Made by a program: the position numbers and the translations under genes. Below, piece by piece: positions 14,931 through 42,818 of a stretch of DNA of 64,000 nt. The notes under the pieces are model-generated. The model searched no databases. It was given only the letters and a program-made list of their open reading frames with translations, and was not told the origin of the DNA. Source of the stretch: Anaerolineales bacterium (GTDB taxonomy: Bacteria > Chloroflexota > Anaerolineae > Anaerolineales > UBA11579); contig JAGVCA010000016.1 of NCBI GenBank assembly GCA_020059485.1, forward strand, positions 51,890-115,889. Reading direction: 5' to 3'. Numbering within the stretch: the first letter of the stretch is position 1; every line of letters starts with the position of its first letter.

Positions 14931-15124
14931 ATCTGATCCTCCAATTTTTACCTATTAAGGTAAATTTTATTCTAAATATCTGATATTGACCAGTATACCA
15001 GAGACTCATGCGGGAAAACATTTCACCCAGGATGGAGATTGTCAGATCCATAAAAATCTCCAAAGGGGACTGTCGTCTTCAGGCGACAGGGGAATTTGGA
15101 AGTGGCGGGAGCAACTCCCTGATT

Positions 15125-16320
15125 GTGGCAGGGTAATCGCATTTGAAAATATAGTAAGCTAGGGGGATGAAAAAAGAAGAGCAACTGACCTTGATGAGGT
15201 GTTTCGCAGAAGTAGAAGATCCGCGAATCGGACCGGCACAACTGCATAATCTGGAAGACATCCTGACGATTGCGATCTGCGGGGTGATCTGTGGCGCCAA
15301 TGACTGGGTCAATATCGAACTATTTGGGCAAGCGAAAGAAGCATGGCTGAAGACGATTTTAGAATTGCCCAATGGGATCCCGTCCCACGATACGTTTGGG
15401 CGAGTCTTCCGGGCAATTGACCCCGAGCAATTTGAGCAAGCCTTTATGAAATGGATCATGAGCATCCAAGAAGTCACTGAAGGCGAAGTTGTGGCGATCG
15501 ATGGGAAGAGCTTGAGACGATCCCATGATGGGCTGTTGGGAAAAGATGCGATCTGGATGGTAGATGCCTGGGTCAGTGAGAACCAGGTCACCCTGGGACA
15601 GTTGAAAGTAGCAGAGAAGTCGAATGAGATCACAGCGATCCCCAAACTGCTCGAACTTCTGATGATCAAGGGATGCATTGTGACCATCGATGCCATCGGC
15701 TGCCAGACAAAAATAACTGAAAAAATCATTGAAGCGGGAGCTGATTACGTCCTGGCTGTCAAAGAGAACCAGGGCATTTTGTTCCGAGAGATGGAATGGT
15801 TGTTTGAGCTCGCCAAGCAGGTGAAATTTGAGCAAGTGCCCCATGAACACATCAAAACGGTCAGCAAACATGGGCGCTTAGAAATCCGGGAATGCTGGAG
15901 CATCTCTGATGGTGATTACATTGATTATCTCCAAAACCATCAGGACTGGAAAGGGCTCAAAACAATTGCGGTGGTCGAAACCGAATTTAGAAGCAAGGAG
16001 AAAATCACCCGTCAAAGGCGCTATTAATTCTCCAGCTTGGAGGGAGATGCTGAAACCATTTTGCATACCGTCCGCACACATTGGCAAGTTGAAAATACCC
16101 TCAACTGGTCCTTAGATGTGACTTTCCGTGAAGATGACAGTCGCATCCGGAACGGAGCGGGCCCACAAAATATGGCCGTGCTGCGCAGGCTTGCTCTCAA
16201 TTTGCTCAAGAAAGAAACTTCCATCAAGAGAAGTATTCAAGGAAAACGCTTTCTGGCAGGTTGGGACAATGATTATCGCTAAAAATTCTTTTCAATCCCT
16301 AAATGCGATTACCCTGTCAC
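15125..16320 (+). mobile_element. ISAs1-family insertion sequence
   Basis: Perfect 16-bp terminal inverted repeats CAGGGTAATCGCATTT at 15129-15144 and 16301-16316 (reverse complement). They enclose one transposase reading frame. The element is visibly more AT-rich than its flanks. Confidence 0.85.
15167..16282 (+). pseudogene. ISAs1-family (H-repeat-associated) transposase interrupted by an in-frame TAA
   Basis: The N-terminal region CFAEVEDPRIGPAQLHNLEDILTIAICGVICGANDW is typical of the family. ORFs 15167-16027 and 16037-16282 are in the same frame. They are separated only by TAA at 16025-16027 (RRY*FSSLEGDAE). Confidence 0.85.
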
Positions 16321-36130: not shown

Positions 36131-36574
36131 ATGAGCAAACCAGCAGATCACCAGCAGCTCTTCGAAAACGCACTTGATCGTCTCCGTACATCCGGTTACA
36201 AGGTTACCGCCGCCCGGAGAGACCTCCTGAAGATCCTTTGCCAGACAGGTGACCATCTGACCTCTACCGATGTAATCGAAAAAGCCGCTCAAGCGAAACG
36301 CCCAATCGGTCGAGCCAGCGTATTCCGCACCCTGGACCTGCTGACCGAGTTGGGGATCATCCGCCCGACCTACCTGCACCGGGGCGCGCCAAACTACATC
36401 GTCATGCCTGAGAACGGCCACCATGCCCATATTATCTGCCGGGATTGCAGTCAGGTGATCGAGATCAATGAATGCAGCATTGATGAAATGATTGATGCGC
36501 TTGAAGTCCGGCACAATATAGAGATCACCGGTCACCTGCTTGAGCTGTATGGCAAATGTAAGGACTGTGAGTAA
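36131..36574 (+). CDS. zur: Fur-family metalloregulator, probably Zur
   Basis: 147 aa. It has a winged-helix N-terminus, HHAH, and CxxC...CxxC (CRDC, CKDC). It sits immediately upstream of the znuA-like gene. Confidence 0.75.
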   Translation: MSKPADHQQLFENALDRLRTSGYKVTAARRDLLKILCQTGDHLTSTDVIEKAAQAKRPIGRASVFRTLDLLTELGIIRPTYLHRGAPNYIVMPENGHHAHIICRDCSQVIEINECSIDEMIDALEVRHNIEITGHLLELYGKCKDCE

Positions 36575-36677: not shown

Positions 36678-36689
36678 GGAGTGATTGTG

Positions 36690-37697
36690 ATGACCTTCAG
36701 AAAATTACTCATCCTGACCATACTGGCAACACTGCTGGCGGCATGCAGCCCGGCTGATCACATCAATCCGCCAGGCGATTTGGCCCTGCCCGAGAACGGC
36801 GCGGTTTCCCTGGCATCTGGCGAAAAACTCACTGTCGTCGCCACCACCAGTTTCATCGGCGATGTCGCCGCCCAGGTTGCCGGGGACGCCATCAACCTGA
36901 CCACCCTGATCGGCGTTGGCCAAGATCCTCACGGCTTTGAACCCACCCCGCAGGACCTGGCCGCCATCGAGCGCGCCGATCTGATCCTGGTCAACGGCCT
37001 CGGCCTGGAAGAGGTTCTGCTGGAGGCGATTGGTGAGACCGCCGCCGCGCCGGTCGTCCCGGTTTCCGCCGGGATCGAACCCCTCGGGCATAACGATGAA
37101 CATGAAGAAAAAGAAGAAGACCACGAAGAAGGCGAGGACCACGGACACACAGCTGGCGATCCCCACTTTTGGGTAGACCCGAACAATGTCATCATCTGGG
37201 TAGAAAATATCCGCCAGGCTCTCTCGGTGGCTGACCCCAACAATGCCGAGCTGTACGCGGCCAATGCTGCCGCTTACCGCCAGCAGTTGGAAGAACTGGA
37301 TGCCTACATCCGGCAGCAGGTCGAAACCATCCCGCCCGCCAACCGCGAACTGATCACCGACCATGGCACCTTTTCCTATTTCGCGGAGGAGTATGGCTTC
37401 GAGATGATCGGCACGGTCATCCCGGGCTTTACCACCACTGCCGGCCCTTCCGCTGGTGATCTGGCTGACCTGCTGGCTTTGATCGCAGAGCACCAGGTCC
37501 CAGCCATTTTCGTCGGCGAGACCGCCCCGGAGAGCACCCGCAAACTGGCGGCTACCCTGGCCGTGGAATCCGGCACCGAGATCCAGGTCCTGACCTTGCT
37601 GACCGGGTCACTCGCCCCCGCAGGCCAGCCCGGCGACACCTACCTGGGCTACATGCGGTACAATATCGAGAAGATTGCCGCCGGGCTGTCTGAATAA
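36690..37697 (+). CDS. znuA: Metal ABC transporter substrate-binding lipoprotein, ZnuA-like
   Basis: Lipobox LLAAC. TroA-fold pattern. The His/acidic loop HNDEHEEKEEDHEEGEDHGH is typical of zinc-specific ZnuA. Confidence 0.85.
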   Translation: MTFRKLLILTILATLLAACSPADHINPPGDLALPENGAVSLASGEKLTVVATTSFIGDVAAQVAGDAINLTTLIGVGQDPHGFEPTPQDLAAIERADLILVNGLGLEEVLLEAIGETAAAPVVPVSAGIEPLGHNDEHEEKEEDHEEGEDHGHTAGDPHFWVDPNNVIIWVENIRQALSVADPNNAELYAANAAAYRQQLEELDAYIRQQVETIPPANRELITDHGTFSYFAEEYGFEMIGTVIPGFTTTAGPSAGDLADLLALIAEHQVPAIFVGETAPESTRKLAATLAVESGTEIQVLTLLTGSLAPAGQPGDTYLGYMRYNIEKIAAGLSE

Positions 37698-37756
37698 TCT
37701 CCCTAACTTCAACCACGCGGCAACAGGCGTAAATCCGTTGCCATTTATGAGGCCAG

Positions 37757-38554
37757 ATGGTCACCAGGATCTTTGATTACGGTAAACCGTGTACGACGCC
37801 CCCCATCGAGGATACCCCTGCCCTGCAAGTGGAGGGACTGACTTTCCGTTACCCGGATCTGGACCTGCCGGTACTGGACCAGATCAACCTGACGATCCAC
37901 CCTGGGGAACGGGTGGCGATGGTTGGACCGAACGGGGCCGGTAAGTCCACGCTGATCAAACTGGTCGCCGGGCTGGAGAAGATCCAGTCAGGCCGCATCC
38001 AGGTCTACGGCCACCCGGCCCACGAGTGCAAACACCGCGTAGCGCTTGTTCCGCAGCGCTCGGAGGTGGACTGGCGCTTCCCGGTCACTGCCCGTGAGGT
38101 AGTGATGATGGGACGCTACGCCAACCTCGGTTGGGTAAAACGCCCCCGTCCGATCGATCACCAGAAAGTCGCTGAAGCCCTCGAACGGCTCCAGATCACC
38201 CGCCTGGCCGACCGCCGTGTCGGGGACCTCTCCGGCGGGCAGCAGCAGCGCGTCATGCTGGCGCGCGCTCTGGCTCATGATGCCGATCTGCTGCTGCTGG
38301 ACGAACCACTCAACCATGTCGATTTTTCCACCCAGGAACTGATCTTCCACCTGCTGGAAGACCTGTGCAACCTAGGCAAAGCCGCCATCGTCAGTACCCA
38401 TGACCTGGGGATCCTCCCGGTGCACTTTTGCCGGGCGGTCTTTCTCGACCGCCATATTATCGCGGACGGCGAAGTCAGCGATGTGCTGACCGCAGAAAAC
38501 ATCGCCCGGGCTTATGGTTTTGAGTTCCACGGGGAGGAGAACACCAGCAAGTGA
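37757..38554 (+). CDS. znuC: Metal ABC transporter ATP-binding protein
   Basis: Walker A GPNGAGKST, signature LSGGQQQR and Walker B LLLLDEP. Confidence 0.9.
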   Translation: MVTRIFDYGKPCTTPPIEDTPALQVEGLTFRYPDLDLPVLDQINLTIHPGERVAMVGPNGAGKSTLIKLVAGLEKIQSGRIQVYGHPAHECKHRVALVPQRSEVDWRFPVTAREVVMMGRYANLGWVKRPRPIDHQKVAEALERLQITRLADRRVGDLSGGQQQRVMLARALAHDADLLLLDEPLNHVDFSTQELIFHLLEDLCNLGKAAIVSTHDLGILPVHFCRAVFLDRHIIADGEVSDVLTAENIARAYGFEFHGEENTSK

Positions 38555-38583
38555 CGACTCTATCGCCTGAAGGCGACAGCTTC

Positions 38584-39765
38584 TCAAGACACGCTCGGCG
38601 CAGCCGCCCACGTTAGGTCTTGATCGCTCCGTCCGAGCGAGCTGAATGCACTTGCCAACACATTCCGGGCAGCATTCACATCCCGGTCCAATACCAGTCC
38701 ACATTCAGGACAATCATGAACACGCACAGACAAACGCTTTTCGACCCTCTCTCCACACCGGCTGCACCGCTGGCTGGTGCGGGCCGGGTTCACCACAACC
38801 AGTCGGCAACCAGTCTCTTCCACTTTGTATGCCAACATTTGGGTGAACATCCCCAGGCCCGCATCGTGCGAGGACAGCGCGAGATGCCGGTTCGTGTTGA
38901 GGAACTTGAGGTTGAGGTCTTCGATCGCAATCAGGGCATGCCTTTCAGCCAGTTCCCGGGTGAGCTTGTGCCAGTAGTCATGACGTTGGTTGGCGATCTG
39001 CTCATGCAGACGGGCCACCTGCCGGACCGCTTTGCGCCGGCGATTGCTGCCCTGCTTCCGTCTGGACACCCGGCGCTGGGCCACCCGCAGCCTGGACAGC
39101 GAGCCTCTCAGCCAGCGGGGGTTGTCAATCAGCTCGCCTTCGCTGGTCGCCAGCAGGGAGCGCAGGCCCATGTCAATCCCAATCGGGCCGATCTCGATCG
39201 GACTGCCTTTTTGCTGTGGCTTTTGCTCCTGATCGGGCAGTTCCAGCATCAGGCAGAGATACCATTTGTCGTTGACCCGTTTGACGACCACATGCTTGAT
39301 GACCGCTCGCTCCGGGATCGGGCGGTGGAAGATCAGCTTGATCTCGCCGACATGCTGCAGGTAGAAGCGTTTCTGTCCGTTGTCCTTCTCCCGCAGCTTG
39401 CAGCCGTCACCGTAGCGGTACTCGACGCTCTTGAAGCGGTGATCGCCTTTGTAGCGCGGGAAGCCGGGAGTTTCTCCAGCTTTGACCCGGCGGAAGAAGG
39501 CCGCGAAGGCTTTGTCCAGCCGGCGCAGCAGCTGCTGCACGCTGCTGGCATTCAGCAGGCCGTATTCCTCCGGGCATTTGTTGCGCTGATCGCGGAAGTG
39601 CACCCATTGGGCAGGATAGCGGATCCCTTCACCGCTCTCCTGGTAGGCGGTGATGCGCTGTTCCAGGGCGGCGTTGTACAGCCGGCGCGCCTGGCAGAAC
39701 AGGCTGTCGAGGGCAGCGGTTTGCGCTCTGTTGGGACGCAGGCGGTACTTGTAGGTCCGGATCAT
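38584..39765 (-). CDS. tnpB: TnpB (OrfB_IS605) RNA-guided-endonuclease-family protein
   Basis: 393 aa. N-terminus MIRTYKYRLRPN. RuvC motifs GIDMG, IAIEDL and DRDVNAARN. Zinc ribbon CSRCG...CPECG. Confidence 0.92.
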   Translation of the reverse strand: MIRTYKYRLRPNRAQTAALDSLFCQARRLYNAALEQRITAYQESGEGIRYPAQWVHFRDQRNKCPEEYGLLNASSVQQLLRRLDKAFAAFFRRVKAGETPGFPRYKGDHRFKSVEYRYGDGCKLREKDNGQKRFYLQHVGEIKLIFHRPIPERAVIKHVVVKRVNDKWYLCLMLELPDQEQKPQQKGSPIEIGPIGIDMGLRSLLATSEGELIDNPRWLRGSLSRLRVAQRRVSRRKQGSNRRRKAVRQVARLHEQIANQRHDYWHKLTRELAERHALIAIEDLNLKFLNTNRHLALSSHDAGLGMFTQMLAYKVEETGCRLVVVNPARTSQRCSRCGERVEKRLSVRVHDCPECGLVLDRDVNAARNVLASAFSSLGRSDQDLTWAAAPSVS

Positions 39766-40113
39766 TCAGCTGCGGTTCTCTTGTGTTTCGATGGATTTCC
39801 TGACCGTTTCTTCGGAGACGTGCCGACGCTGCCCACATCACCCAATCTGCTCCACAGTACAGCTATCCTGGTTTGCCATCTGCTGTGGCGCTGTGGTTGG
39901 ATCGCCAGCCTCAAACTGGCGACTGTGATCAGATCCGCTCTCCAAGACCTCAATGTCCATCTTGGGTTGGCTTGCTTTGTTCTGAAGCAGTTCTTTCAGA
40001 CGCACAGCCGCACTCCCCACAAGAACTTTCCGCCTGTACTTTGGGCACCAGACCAGATGATATTTGAGAGAAAACACACTGCCTGCGTTGGTTTTGGATT
40101 GAGTGCCAGACAT
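39766..40113 (-). pseudogene. tnpA: Decayed IS200-type Y1 transposase (tnpA)
   Basis: The N-terminus YHLVWCPKYRRKVL is intact. The expected HUH region reads SDHSRQ. There is an in-frame TGA at 39838-39840. The middle part is missing or frameshifted (LWSR in another frame). The C-terminal HVSEETVRKSIETQENRS is back in frame 1. Confidence 0.8.
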
Positions 40114-40216
40114 AGAACAATTGTACTACAAATGTGTCGAAACGACAATTGCGACAAAACAATCAGGGAGTGCCGTTTGCCACTGCCAATTTCCTCGGCT
40201 CCCTTTGGAGTATTTT

Positions 40217-41038
40217 ATGATTGAATGGTTGACCGAACCCCTGACCTACGGCTTCATCGTGCGCGGGCTGGCGGCCGCCATCCTGACCGGCATCGCCTGC
40301 GCCGTGTTGAGCGCTTTCGTGGTCTGGCGCGGGATGGCCTTTGTTGGCGATGCCATCGCCCACGCCATACTGCCCGGGATCGTACTGGCCTTCATCGCCG
40401 GCGTGAGCCTGTTTGCCGGCGCGCTGGTCACGGCGGTGCTGGTAGCGGCCTTGATCGGCTGGCTCTCACGCCACGGGGATATTCGCGAGGACACTGCCAT
40501 CGGCGTGGTCTTTACCGGATTCTTTGCCCTGGGTATCCTGCTGATGAGCATTGTGACCAGCTACCAGGATCTGACCCACATCCTGTTCGGCGATATCCTG
40601 GGGGTCAGCCGCTCCGACCTGGGCATCATGGTGGCGATCATGGCCATTGTGCTGGTGGCGGTCTTTCTGTTCTATAAGGAGCTGGTCGTGACCTCCTTTG
40701 ATCCGGGTCATTCGGTGGCGATCGGACTATCGCCTGAACTGGTGCGCTATGGCCTGCTGCTGCTGATCGCCCTGACCGTAGTGGCCGCTATCCAGGTCGT
40801 TGGTGTCGTTCTGGTGTTGGCGTTGTTGATCACTCCGGCGGCGGCAGCCTCCCAGTTGGCCAAACGACTGCCAGCCATCATGGGGCTTGGTGTGGTCTTC
40901 TCTGTGCTCTCCGCCCTGGTTGGATTCTATGCTTCGTATTATGCCAATGTTGCTTCCGGCCCGGCGGTCGTGCTGACCCTGACGGTGATCTTCCTCCTGA
41001 CGCTGCTGGCCCGCACCATCCGCCACCGGCTGGCCTGA
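40217..41038 (+). CDS. znuB: Metal ABC transporter permease
   Basis: Start at 40217 with RBS GGAG. About 8 TM helices with the ZnuB/TroC pattern (FMxxALxxG..., LVLALLITPAAAA). The track ORF start at 40103 lies inside the IS end. Confidence 0.88.
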   Translation: MIEWLTEPLTYGFIVRGLAAAILTGIACAVLSAFVVWRGMAFVGDAIAHAILPGIVLAFIAGVSLFAGALVTAVLVAALIGWLSRHGDIREDTAIGVVFTGFFALGILLMSIVTSYQDLTHILFGDILGVSRSDLGIMVAIMAIVLVAVFLFYKELVVTSFDPGHSVAIGLSPELVRYGLLLLIALTVVAAIQVVGVVLVLALLITPAAAASQLAKRLPAIMGLGVVFSVLSALVGFYASYYANVASGPAVVLTLTVIFLLTLLARTIRHRLA

Positions 41039-41156
41039 CCGCACCACTCCCGAACCGATACACACCTGAGTGCTTAATCTACATGCCCTGAATGGTTTTC
41101 ATCCCTGGTTGGATGCCGTACAATCACAGCATCTCAAAGTATAAGGAGCAGTGACA

Positions 41157-42818
41157 ATGACGGAATCCACCTCTTCCGAGACCCTAATCCTGAAAAACAA
41201 ATCGGTCCTCATTTGGGCCGTCCTGGCCGCCGGCTGGCTGTTCGACTTCCTGTTTTGGGACAAAACGGCCGGCATCTCCATGGCGATCTATCTGCTGGTG
41301 CTGGCCGCAGTCGGTTTTGTGCTGGCACGCTACCAGGGCATCACCCCGGCCCGCAGCATATACTGGTTGCTGATCCCGCTGACCTTCTTCAGCATCATGA
41401 CCTTCATTCGCGCCGAGCCGATGACCACTTTCCTCAATATTGCCGCCTCGCTCTTCCTGTTGGGCGTGATCGCCCACTCTTTCACAGGCGGCCGCTGGTG
41501 GCAGTACCGCTTTAAGGATTATCTCACCGGGGCCTTCTCCGTGACGCTGGATACCCTCTTCCGCCAGATCTCGATCTTCGCCGGGCAGCCCAAAGCGGCG
41601 GAAGCGCCGAACACCCGCAAGCAGGGCATGCGGACCTCACTCTCGATCCTGCGCGGGGTCCTGATCGCTCTGCCGGTAGTCCTGATCTTTGCCGCCATGC
41701 TCTCCGAAGCCGACCCGATCTTCGGCCAGGCCTTTGAGAAGTTCGTCGATTTCTTCGATATCGAGAACCTGGGCGAGTACATCTTCCGCGCGGTGCTGAT
41801 CTGTTTTCTGGGCTATCTGCTGCTGGGCGTTTATCTGCATGCCTACTACAAGGACCATGACACCGCCATCACCGACGAGGAACAGCGCGTCGTGCCGCGC
41901 TTCCTCGGCATCACCGAGGCGGCCATCGTGCTCGGTGCGGTCAACCTGCTGTTCCTGGCATTTGTCAGCATCCAGTTTCAGTACTTTTTCGGCGGGCAGA
42001 CCAATATCAACCTCGAAGGCTATACCTATGCCGAATATGCCCGGCGCGGCTTTGGCGAGCTGGTGGCTGTGGCGGTCTTCAGCCTGCTTTTGTTCCTCGG
42101 GCTGTCATTTGTGACCAAAAAAGAACACCAGACCGCCCGCCGGGTATTCTCCGGGATGGGTGTGCTGCTGTTTGCCCTGGTCAGCGTGATCCTGGTTTCG
42201 TCCTTCCAGCGGTTGCTGCTGTATGAGGCCGTCTACGGCTTTACCCAACTGCGCACCTATACGCATGTCTTCATCATCTGGCTGGGCGCGCTGCTGCTGG
42301 CTGTCAGTGCGCTGGAGGTGCTGCAAAAGCAGCGCTACTTCGCCCTGGCCGGATTGGTTGCCGCAATCGGGTTCGTTGCCACGCTGAATATCCTGAATGT
42401 GGATGCCTTCATCGTCCGGCAGAACGTCGAGCGGATGGTCGAGGGCGAACCGCTGGATGTCGGCTACCTGTCCTCGCTGACCGAGGATGCCGTCCCGGTC
42501 ATGTCCGACCTGTACAATCAGGCCGAGGATCCCGCCGTGCAGGAGGCCCTGGCCGGTGCGCTGGCCTGCCACGCCGTGGTCAATGAGTTTTATGATTATG
42601 CCAATCGCCCCTACCAGAACTACACCTGGCAGTCCTTCCACCTGGCCCGTCACCAGGCCCAGCAGGACTGGCAGGACCGCCAATCCACTGCTGACGCAGA
42701 CCGATTCTCGGTGCAATACTATGACGATGAGTACAGCGAGCCGGAATCGTGGTGGAATGCCTACGTGATCGTGGGCGGTGAAGAAGTCGGCTGCGGCGGG
42801 TACTACGGCTGGGATTAA
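41157..42818 (+). CDS. Large polytopic membrane protein (DUF4153/DUF4173-like)
   Basis: ATG at 41157 with RBS AAGGAG. About 12 TM helices and a C-terminal soluble region. Confidence 0.5.
   Translation: MTESTSSETLILKNKSVLIWAVLAAGWLFDFLFWDKTAGISMAIYLLVLAAVGFVLARYQGITPARSIYWLLIPLTFFSIMTFIRAEPMTTFLNIAASLFLLGVIAHSFTGGRWWQYRFKDYLTGAFSVTLDTLFRQISIFAGQPKAAEAPNTRKQGMRTSLSILRGVLIALPVVLIFAAMLSEADPIFGQAFEKFVDFFDIENLGEYIFRAVLICFLGYLLLGVYLHAYYKDHDTAITDEEQRVVPRFLGITEAAIVLGAVNLLFLAFVSIQFQYFFGGQTNINLEGYTYAEYARRGFGELVAVAVFSLLLFLGLSFVTKKEHQTARRVFSGMGVLLFALVSVILVSSFQRLLLYEAVYGFTQLRTYTHVFIIWLGALLLAVSALEVLQKQRYFALAGLVAAIGFVATLNILNVDAFIVRQNVERMVEGEPLDVGYLSSLTEDAVPVMSDLYNQAEDPAVQEALAGALACHAVVNEFYDYANRPYQNYTWQSFHLARHQAQQDWQDRQSTADADRFSVQYYDDEYSEPESWWNAYVIVGGEEVGCGGYYGWD

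Follow-up and report, generated by a model that had tools for sequence, protein, structure and literature searches.

What an insertion sequence (IS) keeps once it can no longer move, and what happens to the operon in which it lies, are the questions raised by a decayed element in the zinc-uptake operon of an Anaerolineales bacterium (GenBank assembly GCA_020059485.1, contig JAGVCA010000016.1, positions 51,890 to 115,889). This stretch of 64,000 nucleotides (nt) is referred to here as the window, and coordinates are counted from its first base. The element belongs to the IS200/IS605 family, has the IS608/ISDra2 layout (left end, tnpA, tnpB, right end) and occupies 38551-40216 on the minus strand, antisense to the zur-znuA-znuC-znuB operon, as a first-pass annotation had proposed and as Pfam matches and a family alignment now establish. 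We conclude that it is very probably a fossil, immobile copy whose TnpB nuclease half has been preserved under purifying selection. The element and its parts are as follows.

38551-40216, minus strand: whole decayed element; homology to 12 other copies stops at both positions (right end 38551, left end 40216)
40114-40216, minus strand: left end, defective; palindrome CTGTCGTCTTCAGGCGACAG missing, with ~17 nt deleted near 40194-40200
40120-40148, minus strand: promoter-like site TTGTCG-17-TACAAT, conserved in the family, which would drive tnpA and tnpB
39766-40113, minus strand: tnpA pseudogene, from DNA alignment to the intact copies L064, L065 and L066 and from translations
38584-39765, minus strand: tnpB, 393 amino acids, intact, from Pfam, phmmer, conserved columns, AlphaFold2 and Foldseek
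39172-39174, 38920-38922 and 38680-38682, minus strand: TnpB catalytic codons D198, E282 and D362, from alignment to ISDra2
39187-39201, minus strand: in-frame 15-nt insertion in tnpB (PIEIG, residues 189-193), unique among 120 homologues
38551-38702, minus strand: predicted omega-RNA (right-end element RNA, reRNA) scaffold, overlapping the tnpB 3' end and the right end
38560-38579, minus strand: right-end subterminal palindrome (IP_R), CTGTCGCC-TTCA-GGCGATAG, also the terminal hairpin of the omega-RNA scaffold
38551-38554, minus strand: right-end cleavage motif TCAC, the last conserved bases in all copies; its plus-strand complement GTGA holds the TGA that terminates znuC
38531-38550, minus strand: predicted guide of 16-20 nt, 5'-UUGCUGGUGUUCUCCUCCCC, antisense to the last znuC codons

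Decay of the transposase and preservation of TnpB

The Y1_Tnp gene, present as a pseudogene, and the tnpB gene downstream of it (OrfB_IS605 plus zinc ribbon) are both features of the IS200/IS605 family, no target bases are duplicated (the flanks rejoin to the sequence of relatives), and the right subterminal palindrome is present, whereas the left one, found in the family and in a solo left end elsewhere in the window (15051-15127), is deleted in this copy. Relatives were drawn from protein and contig searches, in which many copies share 60-91% identity and more than 100 share 60-90%; look-ups of P0096, P0035 and P0055 for further independent insertion sites returned mostly the same loci from different samples. 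No second full copy was found in the window by tblastn or blastn, two weak blastn matches leading to the solo left end. When 12 copies are aligned at their right ends, homology extends as far as ...TCGTCAC (window position 38551) and the flanks beyond are unrelated; the consensus is ...GAAG-CTGTCGCC-TTCA-GGCGACAG-AG(T)CGTCAC. The boundaries first assigned were 40216 on the left, which stands, and 38555 on the right, which does not; since family homology reaches 38551, the TGA that ends znuC (38552-38554) is element sequence. The hairpin at 38560-38579, also noted at first pass, is real and is common to all family copies, with compensatory changes (helix 7) and, in the window copy, one G-U in place of a G-C pair. 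At the other end, the copies share the consensus AAAA(N)CTCCAAAGGGGA-CTGTCGTC-TTYA-GGCGACAG-GGGAATTTGG..., immediately 3' of CCAT. This tetranucleotide precedes the left end at 12 sites (L016, L064, L066, L068-L072, L018, L082, L092 and the solo left end at 15051), with TCAT instead at the window element and L001.

The tnpA gene is catalytically dead, its HUH motif, catalytic Tyr and reading frame all being lost. The remnant is 80-85% alignable at the DNA level to the intact tnpA of L064-L066, and the open reading frame (ORF) at 39838-40113 on the minus strand covers positions 1-70 only of the 121 in Y1_Tnp (Pfam, 3e-13). Within it, PDHVHLF has become SDHSRQF (HVH to HSR, 39916-39930). Deletions of 56 bp (between 39871 and 39870) and 1 bp (between 39825 and 39824) follow, and the internal TGA (39838-39840) is read because of the 56-bp frameshift. 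Farther on, the catalytic Tyr codon of the RKYIE motif is now Ser (39793-39795); this Tyr corresponds to Y127 of IS608. The two deletions sum to 57 nt, so that the C-terminal remnant is back in its original frame, and in the intact copies (L064, L065 and L066) tnpA and tnpB share one frame and lie one TGA apart (...GCTGAATG...), the tnpA stop running directly into the tnpB ATG (TGAATG).

The left end has decayed as well, as judged against L064, L066, L068, L070, L071, L016 and the intact solo left end. The first-pass annotation had described tnpA as degraded in these respects (SDHSRQ, an internal TGA and a missing or frameshifted middle part) and the element as probably immobile; the first point is borne out by the alignment to L064, L065 and L066, and the second is now firmer than claimed, since loss of the catalytic Tyr together with deletion of the 17-nt core of the left hairpin leaves no route to mobilization, whether by the element's own transposase or in trans. 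The sequences that flank the left palindrome can pair with each other and change in concert from subclade to subclade (CTCCAAA...TTTGGAAG in L064 and L066, GGCGGT...ACCGCC in L092, GGGCGG...CCGCCC in L082 and CGCAAA...TTTGCG in L072), which implies an outer stem around the TnpA-binding hairpin; this stem is broken in the window copy together with the hairpin.

Judged by sequence, the TnpB nuclease module is preserved, with full length, RuvC triad and zinc finger. Pfam returns HTH_OrfB_IS605 (7e-10), OrfB_IS605 (1.5e-25) and Cas12f1-like_TNB (9e-24), and residues 4-381 match ISDra2 TnpB (8bf8/8h1j) with a phmmer E-value of 2.4e-51. D198, E282 and D362 align to D191, E278 and D361 of ISDra2 and, like the zinc-finger cysteines C334, C337, C352 and C355, are invariant in a 63-sequence alignment, consistent with the earlier description of an intact protein with all RuvC motifs and a zinc ribbon. 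Disabling mutations, looked for by alignment, are not found: tnpB contains no frameshift or stop, and its product keeps 157 of the 158 columns conserved at ≥90% among 119 relatives, the exception being F105Y. The AlphaFold2 model (mean predicted local distance difference test score 86) has 8h1j, ISDra2 TnpB, as its top Foldseek match (E-value 2e-26). In this model, residues 182-190 form a loop of low confidence, and the PIEIG insertion falls at its end, just ahead of the strand that carries RuvC-I (195-199) and five residues short of the RuvC-I Asp. The inserted 15 nt (CCGATCGAGATCGGC) form a near-perfect palindrome and agree with the next 15 nt at 11 of 15 positions, a likeness which suggests that the insertion may be an old, diverged tandem duplication.

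Substitutions and indels both differ between the two genes. Pairwise ratios of nonsynonymous to synonymous divergence (dN/dS) of tnpB to its nearest copies are 0.21-0.26. Branch values, obtained by three-taxon arithmetic on pairwise values, give a dN of ~0.043, a dS of ~0.145 and a ratio of ~0.30 for tnpB on the window branch, with 0.18-0.20 on the sister branches; the corresponding figures for the tnpA remnant on the window branch are 0.130, 0.245 and ~0.53. Three deletions, two of them frame-breaking, fall within ~450 nt of tnpA plus left end, compared with one in-frame insertion in the 1182 nt of tnpB (Poisson P ~3e-4 under a uniform indel rate). The branch ratios and the uneven indels argue that tnpB was under purifying selection while tnpA decayed. 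The two genes also differ in their nearest relatives: window tnpB is closest to L064 (dS 0.22; 0.44 to L065) and the tnpA remnant is closer to L065 (dS 0.46; 0.61 to L064), which suggests recombination between element copies.

Predicted omega-RNA, insertion site and znuB expression

An omega-RNA over the tnpB 3' end, with a guide from the znuC 3' end, had been anticipated at first pass, and a covarying structure that ends exactly at the right boundary agrees with this in silico. Across 12 family copies, the last 150-160 nt before that boundary share a consensus of 40 pairs in seven helices, with 97.5% of cells paired. Both-sided changes occur at 15 of the 40 pairs, versus 4.2 ± 1.6 in shuffled alignments (none of 500 reaches the observed value) and at most two in slid controls. 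All 40 pairs form in the window copy, whose minimum free energy is -63.5 kcal/mol (z -2.96) and whose minimum free energy fold reproduces the consensus helices. A permissive Rfam scan of 37500-41000 returned only a chance snoRNA-like match (E-value 0.3), and no curated omega-RNA family thus covers the element; where the search with existing models finds no matching family, covariation among the 12 copies supports the structure instead. We conclude that the last ~150 nt are predicted to be an omega-RNA-like scaffold, with support in silico.

In ISDra2, the last ~16 nt of the reRNA derive from the DNA flanking the right end, and the transposon-adjacent motif (TAM) equals the transposon target (PMC8612924). 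By this rule, the guide would be the 16-20 nt listed above, and TnpB is predicted, by likeness to the ISDra2 system, to bind this RNA and to cleave double-stranded DNA in a TAM-dependent manner. The sole perfect match to the guide in the window is its own site, where it is preceded by element sequence and not by a TAM.

The surrounding genes, and a candidate translation signal contributed by the element, are as follows.

36131-36574, plus strand: Fur-family gene (Pfam)
36681-37697, plus strand: ZnuA gene (Pfam)
37757-38554, plus strand: znuC, ABC ATPase, 265 amino acids, without the C-terminal WLNG found in 10 of 11 aligned relatives
40207-40210, plus strand: GGAG, probable replacement Shine-Dalgarno sequence inside the left end, 6 nt upstream of the znuB ATG (40217-40219)
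40217-41038, plus strand: znuB, ABC-3 permease, 273 amino acids, intact (Pfam ABC-3, 6.6e-75), starting MIEW... versus MVEW... in relatives
41151-42818, plus strand: DUF4153 gene (Pfam)

Two relatives, L079 (an Anaerolineales metagenome-assembled genome with a ZnuC 75% identical) and L081, have the order zur-znuA-znuC-znuB-DUF4153 uninterrupted, and, as had been suggested, the comparison defines the ends of the element and its YCAT target. Both relatives have a 16-nt overlap of znuC and znuB, a ZnuC that ends in ...SQWLNG, and an empty site that reads ...AGCCA joined to ATGGTTGAATGG(A/C)T(A/G)A. Removal of 38551-40216 from the window leaves ...AGCAA joined to ATGATTGAATGGTTGA, which differs from the relatives' junction only in having ATGA for ATGG; the reconstructed empty junction of the locus is ...ACCAGCAAATGATTGAATGG... 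Since the rejoined flanks equal the relatives' junction, the element entered immediately 5' of the znuB ATG, in the orientation opposite to that of the operon. Its placement in the operon at first pass was correct; its position between the two genes is, more precisely, inside the overlap present in relatives. ZnuC now ends in ...TSK, four amino acids short of the relatives' WLNG tail, at a stop supplied by the right end of the element. Two histories would fit this truncation: the G-to-A change may have come first, in which case ZnuC would already have been short and the target would have been TCAT, or it may have come later, in which case the target would have been CCAT and the element would itself have truncated ZnuC.

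The insertion had been expected to be polar on znuB unless an outward promoter exists. TTGTCG-17-TACAAT, directed toward tnpA and tnpB, is the only sigma-70-like match within 38300-40400, and TAGTACAATTGTTCT stands immediately 5' of the first ATG in all copies. Terminator-like matches number four versus 2.1 ± 1.6 expected and are not above chance. Each of the three frames that enter the right end meets a stop within 21 codons, the znuC frame at once, as read from the sequence, and the original translational coupling of znuC and znuB would be gone. The expectation of polarity holds insofar as no outward promoter was detected, but the GGAG in the left end probably rescues initiation of znuB translation, given read-through transcription; the same GGAG-ATG arrangement stands beside the start of hpt in L016 and that of a coxS-like gene in L071. 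Most likely, transcription of znuB starts at the znu promoter and reads through the antisense element; because 1.67 kb must be crossed, znuB expression is probably reduced and not abolished.

Proposed history and competing explanations

We propose that the element arrived by single-strand "peel-and-paste" transposition 3' of a (T)CCAT or TCAT target, as the junctions suggest, this target being the complement of the znuB start codon within the 16-nt znuC/znuB overlap. TnpB would be made from the left-end promoter and would process the 3' end of its own transcript into a ~150-nt omega-RNA with a 16-20-nt guide antisense to the znuC 3' end. Cleavage by the complex would be confined to a znuC/znuB junction that lacks the element, in which YCAT is followed by TTGCTGGTG..., the predicted target being YCAT plus TTGCTGGTGTTCTCCT. 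With no such element-free target in this genome, the complex would be idle here, but it could drive homing into, or killing of, element-free alleles, which would give a copy-level reason for purifying selection on tnpB after the death of tnpA.

Several points weigh against the view of a fossil copy with a selectively preserved nuclease. The window-branch dN/dS spans time both before and after immobilization, and the loss of constraint may be recent. The TCAT target of the window element departs from the usual CCAT of the family and is shared only with L001. The PIEIG insertion, placed in its loop by the structural model, is near the catalytic Asp and could impair the nuclease. Any translational coupling of tnpB to tnpA through TGAATG would have gone from this copy, in which AGAG also replaces the upstream GGAG, and TnpB may therefore be poorly translated. 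No outward promoter toward znuB reaches the tool threshold in the scan of 38300-40400. Finally, the activity of TnpB, that of the omega-RNA and the expression of znuB are all predictions from the DNA.

Of the alternatives, the one that survives best is a wholly dead relic, in which tnpB is open only for lack of time since the element was disabled and both TnpB and the omega-RNA are inactive. We regard this as unlikely, though far from negligible: the element cannot transpose, its tnpB ratio is somewhat above those of the sister branches (0.30 versus 0.18-0.20), the insertion of five residues beside the active site is unique, and both tnpA coupling and the Shine-Dalgarno-like GGAG upstream of tnpB (now AGAG) are lost. 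On that same branch, however, tnpA has changed at all three catalytic positions and has acquired frame-breaking deletions, and the left hairpin has gone, while tnpB has kept its conserved columns without a frameshift or stop in 1182 nt and the omega-RNA has retained all 40 of its pairs.

A second alternative is domestication as an RNA-guided regulator of the zinc ABC-transporter operon, akin to the oppF-associated TldRs, and we consider it highly improbable. Like a TldR, the window copy is an immobile, TnpB-derived gene beside ABC-transporter genes, here inside the operon itself, its guide is complementary to operon sequence, and TldR clades of ABC-transporter operons are known (bioRxiv 10.1101/2023.11.30.569447). 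TldRs, however, have decayed RuvC active sites and often truncated C-termini (bioRxiv 10.1101/2023.11.30.569447), whereas the window protein retains its full length, its D-E-D triad and its zinc finger, and the right end and a tnpA remnant are still present. Furthermore, the gene association is not conserved (relatives' znu operons lack the element, and close TnpB relatives occur in unrelated contexts), and the DNA that matches the guide is preceded by element sequence in place of a TAM. TldR-type domestication was rejected on the grounds of the intact active site and the lack of conserved synteny.

An assembly artefact, that is, a chimeric join of an IS-bearing contig with the znu operon, has next to no probability: although the window apparently comes from a metagenome-type assembly and IS copies often break assemblies (many relatives lie on 1.3-2.5-kb contigs, and L092 starts at the junction of CCAT and left end), both junctions are exact, removal of 38551-40216 restores the relatives' junction to the base, the private decay (the deletions and the PIEIG insertion) is seen in no other copy, and the GC content of the element (58%) equals that of the window.

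Family context and significance

The preferred reading, a fossil copy with a preserved nuclease half, can be set beside what is known of related elements. With ISDra2 of Deinococcus radiodurans, the window copy shares the TnpB family and fold, the D-E-D triad, whose D191 has a confirmed role in ISDra2 TnpB, and the zinc finger, as well as a structured RNA across the tnpB 3' end and right end, a guide from the flank and a TAM expected to equal the target (PMC8612924). Unlike ISDra2, TnpB identity being only ~25-31%, the predicted target and TAM are (T)CCAT or TCAT versus TTGAT, TnpA and the left end are dead in the window copy, and TnpB activity is here predicted from sequence.

IS608 of Helicobacter pylori has 4-nt guide boxes 5' of each hairpin, and the window family has GGGA and GAAG in these places. 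Barabas and co-workers reportedly described, in 2008, the IS608 right-end pair TCAA/GAAT, which would be mirrored by TCAC/GAAG here. Other shared features are tnpA and tnpB in the same orientation, subterminal imperfect palindromes at both ends (in the family), the absence of a target duplication, a left cleavage and target tetranucleotide ~18-19 nt 5' of the left hairpin, and a right cleavage site ~9-10 nt 3' of the right hairpin, the two spacings being ~18 and 9 nt in the window family and IS608 having TCAA 10 nt 3' of its right palindrome (PMC3201880). Unlike IS608, the target is CCAT in the window family versus TTAC, and the window copy lacks a left palindrome and has an inactive Y1 transposase.

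The vast majority of tnpB genes occur without tnpA, with nearly 50 copies in Geobacillus stearothermophilus, and TnpB cleaves donor joints and brings about element retention (Meers et al., PMC10055086). Like these tnpB-only elements of the IS605/IS1341 type (ISGst), the window copy retains tnpB and omega-RNA without a working tnpA, and tnpB-only copies are also found among its close relatives (L016, L068, L070, L071, L018 and L001). Such tnpB-only copies, however, keep both ends and are movable in trans, whereas the window copy has lost its left hairpin and is fixed; it also still shows a tnpA remnant, documenting the path of decay.

Family-wide comparison yields a further observation on insertion sites. 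In five of 10 evaluable independent insertions, a set which excludes the solo left end at 15051, itself abutting no clear gene start, the left end sits directly against the start codon of a genuine gene that faces outward. The start codons concerned are as follows.

Window, 40217: znuB, supported by homologues
L016, ~644: hpt, Pfam-supported N-terminus
L071, 2385: coxS-like gene, Pfam-supported N-terminus, the insertion lying between coxM and coxS
L018, 2388: long ORF without Pfam match
L001, 587: long ORF without Pfam match

Abutment of this kind is far commoner than random (P 6e-6 to 2e-4, for a choice among the 1036 YCAT sites of the 64-kb window). The target (T)CCAT is the complement of ATGG(A), and in four of these five cases the left end carries a GGAG 5-8 nt ahead of the ATG. 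Survivorship of harmless insertions is the simplest explanation. That the IS subfamily is adapted to start codons inside operons, sparing both neighbors, with the TnpA-less copy acting as a homing or addiction element, appears doubtful to us; if true, the left-end GGAG and the right-end stops would make an insertion of the znuC/znuB type translationally almost scarless. We also entertained the GGAG as an evolved, portable ribosome-binding site. This idea is weakened by the finding that the CTCCAAA box is one arm of the outer stem that covaries between subclades, which makes the GGAG subclade-specific and probably a fortunate by-product, not an adaptation.

The solo left end at 15051-15127 (plus strand) reads GATCCAT followed by AAAAATCTCCAAAGGGGACTGTCGTCTTCAGGCGACAGGGGAATTTGG..., has its hairpin intact, and indicates that the same IS family was active in this genome. 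It is cut after ~77 nt by an ISAs1-like transposase gene (15167-16282, plus strand; DDE_Tnp_1_assoc and DDE_Tnp_1), which is itself split into ORFs at 15167-16027 and 16037-16282, and no tnpA, tnpB or right end follows it. In other copies, L070 (~2202-2369) is inserted in the C-terminal part of what appears, from sequence reading and with no Pfam match, to be an IS110-family transposase gene, L090 (~1-1100) has its left end truncated beside an IS66 transposase gene, and L082 (~1000-1150) interrupts a same-strand gene at codon 9.

A 534-amino-acid ORF on the plus strand (38620-40224) lies antisense to tnpB, the tnpA remnant and the left end, in codon register with them, and ends 8 nt into znuB; we rejected it as a real gene, considering it a codon-aligned shadow frame. 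The codons that read as stops on the opposite strand, TTA, CTA and TCA, make up only 0.9% in host genes of the window, and the antisense ORF of the window is thus not significant. Most family members carry zero to three such codons per tnpB gene. In nine tnpB genes with a composition-based expectation, zero to two are seen versus six to 12 expected. The genes low in these codons are those of the window copy, L016, L064, L065, L068, L070, L071, L001 and L017; L017 (GC content at third codon positions 0.37) has three, all after codon 351. L072 matches expectation (15 versus 15.9) and L018 has 14.

For the organism, the locus shows an operon of overlapping genes tolerating a 1.67-kb antisense insertion, with a stop codon and, probably, a ribosome-binding site donated by the ends of the element. 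It also adds, from a Chloroflexi genome that is Anaerolineae-like, a new pair of TnpB and omega-RNA whose TAM is predicted to be short (YCAT), and the defined scaffold and about a dozen natural variants of it may be of interest for the mining of compact genome editors. That TnpB outlives tnpA is the norm, well known for the family, and leaves current understanding unchanged. The window copy documents an order of decay in an IS605-type element, with transposase and left end lost first and nuclease and predicted guide scaffold kept, in keeping with the idea that TnpB is a selfish nuclease of the homing type and that tnpB-only copies are the usual end state.

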